NCBI GenBank assembly: GCA_039933555.1 | Contig: JBDTNV010000004.1 | Location: 1-54,861 of the forward strand | Direction: 5' to 3' | Origin: Ignavibacteria bacterium | GTDB taxonomy: Bacteria; Bacteroidota; Ignavibacteria; Tepidaquicellales; OLB5 | Length of the DNA stretch: 54,861 nt | Part shown: positions 5,015 through 36,485 of the stretch, piece after piece | Layout: every line of letters starts with the position of its first letter | Numbering within the stretch: position 1 is the stretch's first letter | Translations under genes and position numbers: made by a program | Notes under the pieces: generated by a model | What the model saw: only the letters and a program-made list of their open reading frames with translations | What the model was told of the DNA's origin: nothing | Databases searched by the model: none

Positions 5015-7447
5015 TTATTCAGGCTTTGCTTTGAATGTGAGCAGTGCTGCGAATGCAGCTATATAACATACAGCCCCCGACCAATAAGACGCGGATATAC
5101 CATAATTCATTGCGATAATTATTGATAAAACTGTTGCTAATACTGACATAACCCCATTAATTCCCCAAAGCCAGGGCGTAATTGCAGGATTTTTAATGTT
5201 TGCCAGTTTCATTCCGGCAGGGAAAGCCATTCCTAAGAATAAACCCATGGGGAAAAGAATTAATATTGAAACAAGTACCCTTATTTCTGTTGAATACTCT
5301 CTGAAGTAATGAATTATAAACGGAGTTACAATTCCAAATACTATTAAGATTGCTATGAGAATAATAAACCTTTTTCTGCTGTTATTAATAACATCTTTTT
5401 TGTTTACTCCGCTTATCAAGCTGCCAATACCGCTTGAAAGAAGCATAGTGAATAATGCAGCGGCAAGTGAGTAGGTAGGGTGGCCCAAGAATATATTAAG
5501 CCTTTGTATCTGCGAAATTTCTATCAGCATAAATCCAAGCCCAATAGCCATAAAGAACATGAAATATCCTGAAGTACCTTTCAGGGAAATTTTCCGGGAT
5601 GTTATCTTAAGCGGTATGACAATACACAATACCGATAGCCCCGTCATAGTTGCGGCAAGTGTCAGGAGAATGAATATAGCTTTTGCGTTAAAACCCATAT
5701 CCCACTCTTTCCAAAGGGTCGGGTTTGCAATGTCCATAAATTTCATGTAATGAAAAAAGAAAGGTTTATCATCTGATGGCGAGGTAATATTGATAGGGAA
5801 ATTATTATTAAATTCCTGCCGTGAACTTTCGTTTGTTAATTGCACAAAAACTGAATCACTTGCCGAATCGGGTGAAATAACATTTTCAAACTCAAACACC
5901 CTGTTCAAACTGTCTACCATTCTGATATCATTTTTCGAAAATGGCGATTTGCTGATAAGCAGTGTTCCTGTTCCGCTTCTATCCTGGATACGCTCCTGCT
6001 GCTGGCATTTAATAAGCATAATATGCTCACGGATATCCTTAACACCTGATTCCTTTAGCGCATCAGCAGTAATATTCATTAGCCTGTAATGCTCAATGGG
6101 CTTTGCGCGGTAAAACCTTGTTACTGTCAATATGCCATCGGGTTTAAGCCTGCTGAATAACAACTTCCATGTTTCAACAGTATAAAGGGCGTTTTCTGTG
6201 AGTACAAAGGCGCCGGATGCGGCCGCTGACCAGTTATCGATAACTGAGACCTGGATAATATCAAACTTCCTGGCTGAATCCATGCGCTGAATATAGCTTC
6301 TGGCCTCATCTCCGACAAACTCAACATTCGGATATTTATCAAGATGGCCGGTGAATCCACCGAAATCACCATTTATGGCCTTTATCATATCCTTATTAAT
6401 CTCAATGCCCAGCACGGATCTTTGTCCGAAAGCGAGCGAAGAAAGCACGTCACGCCCGGCCCCGCTGCCGATAATCAATACATCACCATTTGGCCTTAGA
6501 TACTGCGCAAGGTTAGATACATCATATTTTAAATGAAACAATTCAGATACATCGCCGTTAAAATGAGAGAGCACCGTTGTGGAATGAGCATCAATATTAA
6601 GCATAAGCTGCCTGATCTTGCGCGAGCGGTCATACTTATTGCTTAGGCCCCATCCAAAGGGCGTTTCGTATTTTGTTGAATCACCATCAATACTTACGCG
6701 TGAAAATGAATTCCATTTTTCATAAAGAGGCTTATCTTCCCACTCGCCTCGCACCCAGAATAACCGGAGCAATGGGTCATGCTGCTGCACAAGTACAGTA
6801 TGAAACACTGAAAAAGCTGCGACTATGAAAGAATAAATAATTATTACTTTACCAAAAGATGTCTTTTTTACAGTGTCTCTGTAAAAGAAATATGCAGCCA
6901 GCGCAGAAAAAAGGGCTGTTATAAAAACACCTGTCGGCCCGCCTGAAGTATTGAGTACCAAAACAACAAGTATACATCCAAGTGATGCACCAATCAGATC
7001 TGAGGCATAAAGCTTATTTACTGATGAAGGGTATCTGGTTAAGAGCAGCGAAACACAAATACCGCTGAAAATAAAAGGGACAGATATTTCAGTATACGTA
7101 AACGCCGTTACTGCTATTCCAACCAGTGACATTCCATGAATAAAAGGGATAAGAATGTGGAATAAGAAGCTGAGTAAAGTGAAAAAGCTGAAATAAAACG
7201 CCTGGCGGGTTAGTATGGAATCTATTTTTTCCTGCGGAAATTTCTTAGGGAAGATATAAACTATAATAGCGCCAACAGTCATACCGAACATTGCAAGTGA
7301 TACCGCCATAAACGCAAAATGGTAGCCCATTGTAACACTGAATATCCTTGTAAGCAGGATTTCGTACATTAATGTAGAAAGCGCTACAAGGAATATACCA
7401 ATATATTTATTACGTGAAACCTGTGGAGAAATTTCGGGTAAATTCAT
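5015..7447 (-). CDS. Membrane-embedded spermidine-synthase-like SAM-dependent transferase
   Basis: N- and C-terminal multi-TM blocks flank a class I SAM fold (VLIIGSGAGRDV, GIEIN, GDEARSYI, FDIIQ, LKPDG). Confidence 0.8.
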   Translation of the reverse strand: MNLPEISPQVSRNKYIGIFLVALSTLMYEILLTRIFSVTMGYHFAFMAVSLAMFGMTVGAIIVYIFPKKFPQEKIDSILTRQAFYFSFFTLLSFLFHILIPFIHGMSLVGIAVTAFTYTEISVPFIFSGICVSLLLTRYPSSVNKLYASDLIGASLGCILVVLVLNTSGGPTGVFITALFSALAAYFFYRDTVKKTSFGKVIIIYSFIVAAFSVFHTVLVQQHDPLLRLFWVRGEWEDKPLYEKWNSFSRVSIDGDSTKYETPFGWGLSNKYDRSRKIRQLMLNIDAHSTTVLSHFNGDVSELFHLKYDVSNLAQYLRPNGDVLIIGSGAGRDVLSSLAFGQRSVLGIEINKDMIKAINGDFGGFTGHLDKYPNVEFVGDEARSYIQRMDSARKFDIIQVSVIDNWSAAASGAFVLTENALYTVETWKLLFSRLKPDGILTVTRFYRAKPIEHYRLMNITADALKESGVKDIREHIMLIKCQQQERIQDRSGTGTLLISKSPFSKNDIRMVDSLNRVFEFENVISPDSASDSVFVQLTNESSRQEFNNNFPINITSPSDDKPFFFHYMKFMDIANPTLWKEWDMGFNAKAIFILLTLAATMTGLSVLCIVIPLKITSRKISLKGTSGYFMFFMAIGLGFMLIEISQIQRLNIFLGHPTYSLAAALFTMLLSSGIGSLISGVNKKDVINNSRKRFIILIAILIVFGIVTPFIIHYFREYSTEIRVLVSILILFPMGLFLGMAFPAGMKLANIKNPAITPWLWGINGVMSVLATVLSIIIAMNYGISASYWSGAVCYIAAFAALLTFKAKPE

Positions 7448-34837: not shown

Positions 34838-35176
34838 TTAATTTTCCTTTTTAGCTGCAGTATTTTTATTCTGTAATTTATCCAGGTATGCTTCCAGGGA
34901 GTCAAGCTTCTGGTTCCATAGTTTCCTGTATTGCTCAATCCAGTCTGATACGGTTAAAAGCTTTTCCATTTTCGCATGGCAGTAACGCTCACGTCCGGCC
35001 TGTTTTATTTCTACCAAACCTGCCTCACGAAGTATTTTAATATGCTTATATACCGCCGCGCGGCTAATTTTAAAATTACCGGATACAGTGTTAACGTTCA
35101 ATGATTGGTATGCGATCATTCCCAAAATTTCTCTTCTGGTAGGATCAGCAATTGCCTGAAATACGTCTCTTGTCAT
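34838..35176 (-). CDS. ArsR/SmtB family transcriptional repressor
   Basis: DVFQAIADPTRREIL, SR.AV.KH.KIL.EAGLV, GRER. Confidence 0.95.
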   Translation of the reverse strand: MTRDVFQAIADPTRREILGMIAYQSLNVNTVSGNFKISRAAVYKHIKILREAGLVEIKQAGRERYCHAKMEKLLTVSDWIEQYRKLWNQKLDSLEAYLDKLQNKNTAAKKEN

Positions 35177-35194: not shown

Positions 35195-35242
35195 ATATGA
35201 AACCTTATGGTTGCGAATATATATGAAACCTTTTGGTTTCGC
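35195..35242. promoter_or_regulatory. Tandem palindromic ArsR operators
   Basis: ATATGAAACCTTATGGTTGC (35195) and ATATGAAACCTTTTGGTTTC (35221), 26 bp apart, each GAAACC-N4-GGTTKC; -7-like TATATTCG between them on minus strand. Confidence 0.8.
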
Positions 35243-35390
35243 AAGTGATTTGGAAAATATATTTTGATAAAGATATGTTATTATTTAGTATAAAGGTAAG
35301 ATTTTTTGGTGCAAATTACTTTTCTGATATAACGATCCTTAATGTGCCGTGGAGCTTGGGCTCATTTTTCAGATTCATTATCGACGATCA

Positions 35391-35420
35391 ATCTCACGCT
35401 AAAACGCAAAGGCGCCAAAA
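35391..35420 (+). repeat. 8-nt periodic repeat, copy A
   Basis: ATCT-CACGCTAA-AACGCAAA-GGCGCCAA, 12 nt from the GxxExxY stop. Confidence 0.8.
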
Positions 35421-35432
35421 AAAGAATAACTT

Positions 35433-35819
35433 TCATAAATTATTTACTACTCGTTTTATTCCGTCTTTTATAAGGTTTGTATTAAAATTTATCAGCAGAC
35501 CCAACTTAATATTGGTTAATTTTAAATAAGTTAACAATTGCTTATGATGTACCGCCTTAAGAGATTCTGCTGATTTAATTTCAATAATAACTTTTTCTTC
35601 TACAATAATATCTGCAATAAATCCAATATTTAATTGCACATTTTCATACATGATGCCAATGGGCTTTTGTCTTTCAAAGTTTAAATTGTTTCTTATTAGT
35701 TCAAAACATAAGACCTCTTCGTAAACTGATTCTAATAGACCTGGACCTAAATTTTTATGAACTTTAAAACAACAATCAACAATAATTTTTGATAATTCAT
35801 TTTCCGTCATCTTTATCAA
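35433..35819 (-). CDS. GxxExxY protein (PD-(D/E)XK nuclease-like)
   Basis: VH..LGPGLLESVYE, ADIIVE.KVIIEIKS, QLLTYLK, GLLINFN. Confidence 0.95.
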   Translation of the reverse strand: MIKMTENELSKIIVDCCFKVHKNLGPGLLESVYEEVLCFELIRNNLNFERQKPIGIMYENVQLNIGFIADIIVEEKVIIEIKSAESLKAVHHKQLLTYLKLTNIKLGLLINFNTNLIKDGIKRVVNNL

Positions 35820-35843
35820 TACTAAATATTGTTATTCGTTTAA

Positions 35844-35868
35844 CTTTGCTTTGTTTTGCGTCTTTGCT
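35844..35868 (-). repeat. 8-nt periodic repeat, copy B (inverted, degenerate)
   Basis: CTTTGCTT-TG-TTTTGCGT-CTTTGCT on plus strand. Confidence 0.6.
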
Positions 35869-35882
35869 ATAAACAAACATAT

Positions 35883-35912
35883 ATCTCACGCAAAGCCGCT
35901 AAGTCGCAAAGA
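35883..35912 (+). repeat. 8-nt periodic repeat, copy C
   Basis: ATCT-CACGCAAA-GCCGCTAA-GTCGCAAA-GA. Confidence 0.8.
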
Positions 35913-36010
35913 ATTAATTGGATCATTTTAATTATCTCGCAATATATATTTATTCTTTATAAAATTTACAATTAATTTAAACTATACAATATAATATCGG
36001 TGAAAAAAGC

Positions 36011-36038
36011 CTTGGCGTCTTTGCGTCTCTGCGAGAAA
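36011..36038 (-). repeat. 8-nt periodic repeat, copy D (inverted)
   Basis: CTTGGCGT-CTTTGCGT-CTCTGCGA-GAAA on plus strand, abutting the HIT gene stop codon. Confidence 0.8.
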
Positions 36039-36485
36039 TTAAGAACTTAAATCAAACTTTAATTTCCTGCTAAGGTCAATTATCTCATCTTTTGAAATTG
36101 ATTCTTCTTCGGTAGGTTTTAAATAATTAAAAGCTTTTGAACCCGTGTACTCAGGATTAAAATCTTTGTTCTTTGGTATTACATGAAAGTGTACATGCCT
36201 GAATCCCTCCATTTCCGCAAAACAGCAGGAGTATTCTTTTTCTGTATGGAATAATTTATGCAGAATATTTATAAGCCTGAAATTTATTTCACCAAGCTCA
36301 TGCCATTCTTCAATGGTAAGCTCATGAAGCTTATCGGTATGGCGCTTAAGCACAATAACTACCCATCCTAATAGACCCGTTGGATAGACATGCTCCGCCT
36401 GCCAATAGATGCCGTCATAAATTACTTCACCCGGACTTATTCTTTTTTCACCGCTGTTAGAAAGACACGATAAACATTCCTGCAT
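36039..36485 (-). CDS. HIT family protein
   Basis: N-terminal CxxC, histidine triad HVHFH.IP. Confidence 0.85.
   Translation of the reverse strand: MQECLSCLSNSGEKRISPGEVIYDGIYWQAEHVYPTGLLGWVVIVLKRHTDKLHELTIEEWHELGEINFRLINILHKLFHTEKEYSCCFAEMEGFRHVHFHVIPKNKDFNPEYTGSKAFNYLKPTEEESISKDEIIDLSRKLKFDLSS

Follow-up and report, generated by a model that had tools for sequence, protein, structure and literature searches.

What is a gene for a small GxxExxY protein doing between inverted arrays of tandem octamers? The question is raised by a locus at positions 35391–36038 of a 54,861-nt (54.9-kb) stretch of DNA, the whole of which we call the window, read on the forward strand of a contig from an Ignavibacteria bacterium. 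The source genome comprises 3.3 Mb in 266 contigs, with 37.6% G+C and 82% completeness. The setting matters because GxxExxY is a large family without a known function: it has 19,910 representatives (clusters at 50% identity) at E ≤ 1e-3 and 5,903 at E ≤ 1e-10, and PDDEXK_3 is entered as function unknown in the accessible part of a survey of PD-(D/E)XK proteins (PMC3424549). The original prediction, made from the window by itself, cast the locus as an analogue of the system formed by repetitive extragenic palindromes (REPs) and REP-associated tyrosine transposases (RAYTs). Our analysis leads to a different first choice. On balance, the locus is probably a small selfish gene cassette of the intervening-sequence (IVS) type, lodged at an operon junction and carrying a RecB/Cas4-like nuclease as cargo.

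Results

Two units at one locus

The features of the locus, with the host genes last, are as follows.

35433–35810, minus strand: GxxExxY gene, 125 aa from its ATG (PF13366, E 5.5e-42; TIGR04256, E 1.5e-43)
35817–35819, minus strand: alternative TTG start of the GxxExxY gene
35391–35419, minus strand: array A, 3′ arm of the intact cassette, three 8-nt units and a TCTCA head
35844–35869, minus strand: array B, which in the sense of the gene is the 5′ arm of the intact cassette; its CGCAAAG-type units are degenerate, a single CGC unit being intact
35883–35911, minus strand: array C, 3′ arm of the gene-less element, three 8-nt units and a TCTCA head
36010–36038, minus strand: array D, 5′ arm of the gene-less element, three 8-nt units, abutting the stop codon of the HIT-like gene
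35912–36009, no strand: AT-rich spacer of the gene-less element, 98 bp, probably the remains of a second cassette
36039–36485, minus strand: upstream host gene, HIT-like, with an HVHFHV triad in its translation, syntenic within the genus
34838–35176, minus strand: downstream host gene, an ArsR/SmtB-family regulator by domain-model matches

The predicted GxxExxY gene is borne out by scores far above the curated cut-offs of both models (PF13366, 143.3 bits against 22; TIGR04256, 147.8 bits against 35). On the minus strand it stands between the HIT-like gene and the ArsR-family regulator, in that order of transcription; the match of the HIT-like gene to the Pfam model DcpS_C, at 21.4 bits, lies below the 24-bit cut-off.

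Four arrays of three 8-nt units had been described here. Their positions hold, as do the three units in A, C, and D, but array B is degenerate. The spacings given for them were close: array A lies 13 nt from the GxxExxY stop (12 had been stated), array B is separated by 24 nt from the TTG start and by 33 nt from the ATG (about 25 had been stated), and array D, said to abut the stop codon of the HIT-like gene, ends 1 nt ahead of it. The repeats do delimit the region, yet it is not the single cassette of about 650 bp that had been proposed. Instead, two units lie side by side, one of ~479 bp running from B through the gene to A, and one of ~156 bp running from D through the spacer to C, without a gene.

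A repeat search of the locus paired A with C in direct orientation (31 nt, 77% identity) and returned three inverted pairs, A/D (29 nt, 79%), A/B (19 nt, 84%), and C/D (16 nt, 88%). The sequence CGCAAAGNCGCNAA, with at most one mismatch, has six matches in the window, every one at this locus, against a shuffle expectation of 0.13; six matches were reached in 0 of 100 shuffles.

Inverted arrays flank GxxExxY genes in many phyla

Is this arrangement peculiar to the window? Related GxxExxY loci were gathered with an alignment of three sequences. We scored 116 of them: six paralogs from the source genome, 30 best matches from 31 relatives (the window included), and 80 loci from named genomes of Bacteroidota, Ignavibacteriota, Cloacimonadota, Planctomycetota, Verrucomicrobiota, Acidobacteriota, Thermodesulfobacteriota, Pseudomonadota, and others. 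The arm score is that of a Smith–Waterman alignment between the 120 nt upstream of the gene and the reverse complement of the 120 nt downstream, with a threshold of at least 26, and displaced windows around each locus served as controls. One locus with a short flank was left out. Among the remaining 115, which span at least eight phyla, 76 reached the threshold, against 9 of 1473 control windows, and 89 outscored all controls from their own locus. Inverted periodic repeats are thus strongly enriched in the flanks of GxxExxY genes, as the original prediction would have it.

The arrays hold two to four tandem units of 8–10 nt. The best arm lag is 9 nt in 42 of 67 arms, 10 nt in 9, and 8 nt in 7, and the 5′ arms lie 20–60 nt upstream of the start codon. 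Neighboring genes generally run in the same direction as the GxxExxY gene, upstream at 101 of 108 determinable loci and downstream at 95 of 104, with the proviso that these loci are not independent.

The source genome has seven GxxExxY paralogs that are 32–44% identical, and the 31 relatives carry 0–12. Each of the seven is flanked by inverted arrays of its own unit (CGCAAAG, CACAAAG, CACTAAT, CACAAAT, CGCAGAT, CACTGAT, or CGCTGAT). The expected match between repeat type and protein clade was recovered as well. In a quick maximum-likelihood tree of 76 proteins, where related sequences share arm labels by descent, the deepest branch (support 99) divides an AAG/GAG-unit clade from a GAT-unit clade. 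AAG or GAG arms occur in 16 of the 22 rows of the former, the remainder being unclassified; GAT arms occur in 33 of the 54 rows of the latter, inside which sits one well-supported AAT subclade. The GAT clade has a terminal consensus of ~22 nt, ATRGAAC-RC-NGAT-NAC-RC-NGAT, which recurs at both ends and across phyla, and conservation ends outside it.

Such arrays might have no function and simply have arisen as AT-rich spacers slipped during replication, in which case their pairing around the gene would be due to chance or to the relic of an old inverted duplication. The number of units does differ between orthologues, the window's array B has decayed, and in the Coxiella IVS the heptamer number likewise varies between strains, according to the accessible part of the report (PMC4990558). 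Slippage does not sit well, however, with the strong enrichment over local controls and shuffles or with the conservation of primary sequence across phyla. A strict pattern of three units at period 8 is present in 20 of the 31 related genomes, whereas a reversed-pattern control gave ~0 hits in the 31 genomes. We therefore regard slippage as highly improbable.

The called ends of GxxExxY open reading frames (ORFs), or of neighboring ones, often include translated array sequence (loci L002:1456–1881, L003:1517–1933, and L006:178–597). Arrays break assemblies, and their read-through into ORF ends will distort automatic annotation. Some database proteins of 250–295 aa (P0001, P0003–P0005, P0008, and others) contain two tandem GxxExxY domains, and these may have arisen by genuine fusion or by read-through of tandem cassettes.

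Cassettes are gained and lost at gene junctions

If the arrays bound a piece of inserted DNA, orthologous junctions should exist in empty and filled states. The clearest comparison is the hutU|ispH junction in 20 other genomes of the genus. Seven are empty, their two genes overlapping or lying within ~10 nt of each other; seven carry the orthologous cassette, which fills the junction in eight genomes altogether; and in two the junction is split over contigs. The other four carry an unrelated two-gene insert of ~645 nt without arrays. In filled sites the insert opens with its first unit 0–2 nt past the stop codon and closes with its last unit 9–20 nt ahead of the next start. In four genomes the TGA stop of the upstream gene falls within the first unit, and it is the first array unit that provides the upstream stop codon in several orthologues. 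The ~645-nt insert (L150, at G016:C54 ~5015–5657; also in genomes G006, G032, and G002) has translations that resemble a nucleotidyltransferase/HEPN pair. It appears that different small selfish modules land at the same tight gene junctions.

Two further junctions tell a similar story. At mutS|tadA, genome G007 is empty, with stop and start overlapping; a GAT-type cassette occupies the junction in the source genome and seven others; a GAG-type GxxExxY cassette occupies the same point in G014 and G004; and in G005 the GAG-type arms alone remain, 16 nt apart. At the junction on contig C248, the flanking genes abut in 10 genomes, with stop and start 3 nt apart in the seven that were inspected. 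The C248 cassette is shared by G006, and internally deleted remnants of it remain in G011 and G013. Across the three sites compared, the terminal arrays are the exact ends of the insert at empty/filled junctions, and G011, G013, and G005 together display a decay series.

The cassette is thus a discrete piece of DNA, bounded by inverted arrays of two to four tandem 8–10-nt units. It immediately follows a co-directional host gene's stop codon and has no obvious promoter. A scan for sigma-70 promoters and terminators gave counts equal to those of shuffles, although its promoter model does not cover this phylum's type. Cassettes are gained and lost at gene junctions, and they decay to internally deleted forms and to gene-less array–spacer–array elements. 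The window's own C–D element can be placed in this series. At its position G011 has arrays around a GxxExxY gene reduced to residues 1–27 and 102–125. Because a truncated GxxExxY gene lies between arrays there, the gene-less C–D element is, from this sequence comparison, probably best read as a decayed second cassette.

Empty-site alleles, which the original prediction had proposed to seek between the window's own HIT-like and ArsR-family genes, were found at the three sister-cassette sites above but not at that site, where none of the 31 relatives has a clean empty allele. In G002 (L045:1941–2507), G016, and G017, a 188-aa gene without a Pfam match stands in place of the cassette; the G002 spacer has no arrays, and the stop of its 188-aa gene overlaps the HIT gene region.

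An unrelated gene family has arms of the same build

The original prediction treated the repeats as a feature of the GxxExxY system itself. This part of it did not survive. All six four-helix-bundle genes of the source genome (TIGR02436, “23S rRNA IVS protein”; C31:4257–4580 [L167], C22:3533–3853, C3:19997–20317, C2:23229–23546, C6:48144–48461, and C8:37013–37342) are, on inspection, flanked by inverted periodic arrays. These consist of tandem 7–10-nt units of types unlike those around GxxExxY genes. When loci of this family from the source and related genomes were scored in the same way, 26 of 34 reached the arm threshold, compared with 2 of 561 displaced windows. Because a family that is unrelated to GxxExxY and encodes no nuclease has the same architecture, the architecture is not specific to GxxExxY.

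Solo arrays, gene-less pairs, and other cargo

Arrays also occur apart from intact cassettes, and the solo and doublet copies that had been predicted are both present, in the source genome and in relatives (including C200 and G005). The strict pattern finds 12 three-unit arrays in the source genome. When gaps of 1–3 nt are allowed, a looser scan yields 18 three-unit and 87 two-unit hits, where Markov controls have 0 and ~21, respectively. About 40 intergenic arrays of this genome have no partner within 1.6 kb. Genomes with more GxxExxY copies tend to have more three-unit arrays (rho 0.61 over n = 31; rho 0.54 over the n = 19 of the genus), with the caveat that these genomes are not independent. 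Genome G007 has four arrays and no GxxExxY match at E ≤ 1e-10, and seven genomes have a GxxExxY gene and no three-unit array.

A genome-wide scan for inverted pairs 250–1000 nt apart returned 47. Those with periodic arms enclose only GxxExxY genes (five), four-helix-bundle genes (five), and one 194-aa ORF, and the remaining pairs are palindromic REP-like hairpins. The 194-aa ORF (L151:103–760; G000:C112:2002–2659) is AT-rich, has a predicted membrane-like N terminus, and has no Pfam match. It lies between inverted CACTAATT-type arms, the same type as those of a GxxExxY cassette 0.9 kb upstream on C112, from which an ordinary short-chain dehydrogenase gene separates it.

Could the arrays instead be bound by a host regulator of translation or of some other post-transcriptional step, as has been proposed for the intergenic TAACTGA heptamers, and simply accumulate near small accessory genes, with their inversion being secondary? 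Many solo arrays are intergenic, the 5′ arms lie a few tens of nucleotides ahead of start codons, and heptamer direct repeats a few nucleotides upstream of start codons are described for Beggiatoaceae, Cyanobacteria, and Bacteroidetes in the accessible part of PMC4679880. A single host factor leaves three things unexplained, however: at least six unit types in a single genome, each bound to one paralog; a matching inverted copy past the stop codon at 76 of 115 loci; and arrays that are the exact ends of inserts. We consider this explanation improbable, if less so than slippage.

Other repeats share these spacers. A REP-like, GC-rich dispersed hairpin of ~80 nt adjoins the C248 cassette (L004:1128–1207, G000:C248), with copies at G000:C3:13247–13326 and in G011, G017, and G012, and many further families of palindromic hairpins occupy the intergenic spacers of the source genome. 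CACAAAG-type arrays at G000 C13:9344, C38:10320, and C209:4145 each follow the same conserved stretch of ~100 nt, which suggests a longer repeated element or a small RNA that ends in the array.

A minimal nuclease as cargo

The original prediction took GxxExxY to be a small PD-(D/E)XK-like protein, and the family models, the catalytic residues, and the predicted fold agree with it. Across 76 sequences, G24, E27, Y30, and D67 are invariant or nearly so, and E77, K79, Q91, and Y95 are at least 90% conserved, forming the motifs G24xxE27xxY30, E77-x-K79, and Q91xxxY95. A PDB sequence search with the protein returned 0 matches at E ≤ 1. Its AlphaFold model has a mean predicted local-distance difference test score (pLDDT) of 95.9, and the best PDB folds for that model are Cas4 (4ic1, 4r5q), lambda exonuclease, the AddAB nuclease, and Hjc, with template-modeling (TM) scores of ~0.5 and E from 1e-3 to 1e-1. 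From the confident model, the PDB folds, and the conserved catalytic residues, GxxExxY therefore looks like a complete and active minimal PD-(D/E)XK nuclease of the RecB/Cas4-like type.

A separate motif lies near the downstream host gene. Two direct copies of a ~20-nt sequence (ATGAAACCTTNTGGTT.CG) stand at positions 35195–35247 of the window, just upstream of the ArsR-family gene, and the pair is also kept in G002 (L045:1835–1885). It is probably the operator of the ArsR-family regulator.

Discussion

How would an IVS-type cassette without an obvious promoter persist at an operon junction? We propose that it is transcribed by read-through from the host operon, that its arms pair in the transcript to form an imperfect duplex of ~25 bp, and that RNase III, which acts in this way on the 23S rRNA IVSs that bear ORFs, would cut this duplex, freeing the cassette RNA from host messages. 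These steps are suggested by the IVS precedent and by the co-orientation of the genes, and taken jointly we hold them to be evenly balanced between right and wrong. In predicted folds of the sense-strand RNA, arms B and A pair in both the minimum free energy and the centroid structures. The predicted fold of the gene-less element as a whole (−33.1 kcal/mol, z −1.84) is interrupted at a regular spacing by single mismatches.

Several observations weigh against an IVS-type cassette or against parts of this scheme. First, the RNA itself gives a mixed picture. The whole-cassette fold (501 nt) is no stabler than shuffles (z 0.03), and the window's B/A pair is weak, with a Smith–Waterman score of 23 against 26 in the best displaced control of the locus. 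Arm mismatches comprise 88 sense-wobble, 90 antisense-wobble, and 273 transversion differences, and thus bear no mark of selection for a sense-strand duplex. About 16% of aligned arm positions are mismatched, and changes between orthologous arms fall at the unit's R and N positions and go uncompensated. The lack of a wobble bias, the level of mismatch, and the uncompensated changes speak against structure being the sole function of the arms. Second, none of 152 loci overlaps 23S rRNA. The 23S genes of five relatives are ~2.9 kb long and uninterrupted, and that of the source genome is not assembled. Because no locus touches 23S, the link to IVSs is one of architecture. Finally, no target duplication was seen at hutU|ispH or mutS|tadA, two of the three sites, and the C248 insert is followed, oddly, by an imperfect 41-nt duplicate of the upstream gene end, with four differences. 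At 32–44% identity, the GxxExxY paralogs give no sign of recent movement.

We set aside arm co-variation as proof that pairing is selected. Arms from the same locus are more complementary than arms from different loci (0.746 against 0.641; 0 of 500 permutations), and variable unit positions agree more often than expected (0.50 against 0.32), but both tests are confounded by shared descent and by the choice of alignment.

What the arms may have instead is a reader. The clade-specific termini, conserved as they are across phyla, point to a factor that reads the terminal sequence. Among candidate readers, the nuclease encoded by the cassette itself would be the likeliest, and it would serve in maintenance or in rare movement; we offer this tentatively, as somewhat short of an even proposition.

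A stronger form of the same idea returns to the RAYT/REP analogy. Here GxxExxY would bind or nick its own units on DNA and move the cassette, and it would act in trans to mobilize cargo variants, solo arrays, and gene-less doublets. It would then be a transposase of minimal PD-(D/E)XK type, accompanied by non-autonomous derivatives. Much of what we observe can be accommodated in this way: terminal sequences conserved at both ends across phyla, unit types that track protein clades, arrays that exactly bound the inserted DNA, intact catalytic motifs, and array counts that rise with GxxExxY copies (rho 0.61 and 0.54), if among genomes that are not independent. So can two local arrangements, the gene-less pair of the same unit type beside the window's gene and the 194-aa ORF between CACTAATT-type arms beside a GxxExxY cassette on C112. 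Other facts fit it poorly. The four-helix-bundle cassettes have the same build without a nuclease; G007 has four arrays without the gene, and seven genomes have the gene without a three-unit array; copy numbers are low (12 strict and 18 loose three-unit arrays); the paralogs are old; and a regular target-site duplication is not seen. Nor are the units palindromes, nor does GxxExxY belong to the HUH enzymes. The idea that GxxExxY moves the repeats is weakened by the nuclease-free sister family, the low copy numbers, and the age of the paralogs. Thus, the cassette, its derivatives, and the empty sites envisaged by the RAYT/REP analogy are real, but the palindromic units, the copy number, the single gene, and the HUH fold that belong to such systems are missing. 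We accordingly rank an IVS-like cassette first, as the probable reading, and a RAYT-like system second, as a rather unlikely one. No integrase or toxin–antitoxin partner gene showed up in the inspected loci, where no test was aimed at integron-like or toxin–antitoxin readings.

More broadly, two unrelated small-gene families and the rRNA IVSs share one build, and empty and filled sites of the kind described here offer many non-essential, accessible loci at which to pursue the IVS question. Cassette decay also provides a concrete possible origin for the intergenic tandem heptamer and octamer repeats of several phyla. A bolder and more doubtful generalization is that GxxExxY and four-helix-bundle cassettes form one large, unrecognized class of mobile intervening sequences in many bacterial phyla, with ends made of tandem 7–10-nt units and with each protein reading its own. 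If that were true, GxxExxY would be the smallest known self-contained mobility or maintenance nuclease, the decay products of the class would explain intergenic heptamer and octamer families (STRR-like, TAACTGA, GGGAATC), and rRNA IVSs would be those members that chanced to land in rRNA.

Comparison with known systems

It is useful to set the cassette beside the systems that it resembles, as these are described in the accessible parts of the papers cited. No published link between flanking arrays and either GxxExxY or non-rRNA four-helix-bundle genes was found in the literature, supplements and database comments being outside the scope of that search.

Free-standing homing endonuclease genes and transposons of the miniature inverted-repeat transposable element (MITE) or terminal inverted repeat (TIR) kind have in common with the cassette a small nuclease gene between conserved genes and presence/absence polymorphism at orthologous junctions. 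The shared features further include gene-less derivatives and terminal inverted repeats, which in the cassette lie at the exact insert ends. Unlike these systems, the cassette shows no regular target-site duplication (none at two of the three sites), has no known transposase fold, and has ends made of tandem sub-repeats.

Intergenic heptamers come closer in the form of their repeats. TAACTGA heptamers occur in tandem between genes of Beggiatoaceae, Cyanobacteria, and Bacteroidetes (PMC4679880), and GGGAATC heptamers occur in Xanthomonas, 70–75 of them as convergent pairs (PMC4692102). As here, the tandem units are 7–9 nt long and sit in spacers, often beside start codons and sometimes as close inverted pairs, and their patchy spread across phyla suggests horizontal transfer. 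In contrast, the arrays described here form both ends of gene cassettes. The accessible text of these two papers draws no link to a gene family or cassette and uses “intervening sequence” and “nuclease” 0 times each, though their supplementary lists of neighbors might differ.

RAYT/REP systems, including the REP doublets known as REPINs (PMC3337134, PMC5581495, PMC3733652), share more of the architecture. Inverted repeat copies flank the gene, gene-less doublets with a spacer occur as REPINs do, solo copies are dispersed between genes, and repeat type is bound to protein clade. The differences are equally concrete. The only Pfam match here is to a PD-(D/E)XK protein and not to an HUH/Y1 (IS200/IS605-like) transposase; the repeats are tandem direct octamers rather than palindromes of 20–40 bp; their copies number tens rather than hundreds; seven diverged paralogs, each with its own unit type, take the place of what is typically one RAYT; and an unrelated gene family has the same architecture.

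Judged by its build, the ORF-bearing 23S rRNA IVS is the closest described system, closer than RAYT/REP. The IVS of Coxiella burnetii is 428 nt long, with an S23p four-helix-bundle ORF, a 28-bp terminal stem, and two or three tandem GACAGAT heptamers, varying in number by strain, just upstream of the start codon; RNase III cuts at the first repeat (PMC4990558). By the same account, the origin and mobility of rRNA IVSs have been open since about 1990 (PMC4990558). IVSs and the present cassettes are both units of ~0.43–0.5 kb with one small ORF (PMC4990558), terminal inverted repeats predicted to form a stem of ~25–28 bp, and tandem 7–9-nt repeats of variable copy number in the 5′ arm just upstream of the start codon. 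Both have gene-less forms of 100–200 nt and lie inside a co-directional transcription unit, and the IVS ORF family itself, TIGR02436, has the same arm architecture at 26 of 34 non-rRNA loci here. They differ in that our cassettes lie outside rRNA (0 of 152 loci), that the GxxExxY cargo is a PD-(D/E)XK nuclease and not S23p, that the period is 8 nt here, and that RNase III cleavage is known for IVSs and is proposed for the present cassettes. The puzzle posed by rRNA IVSs may thus extend well beyond rRNA.

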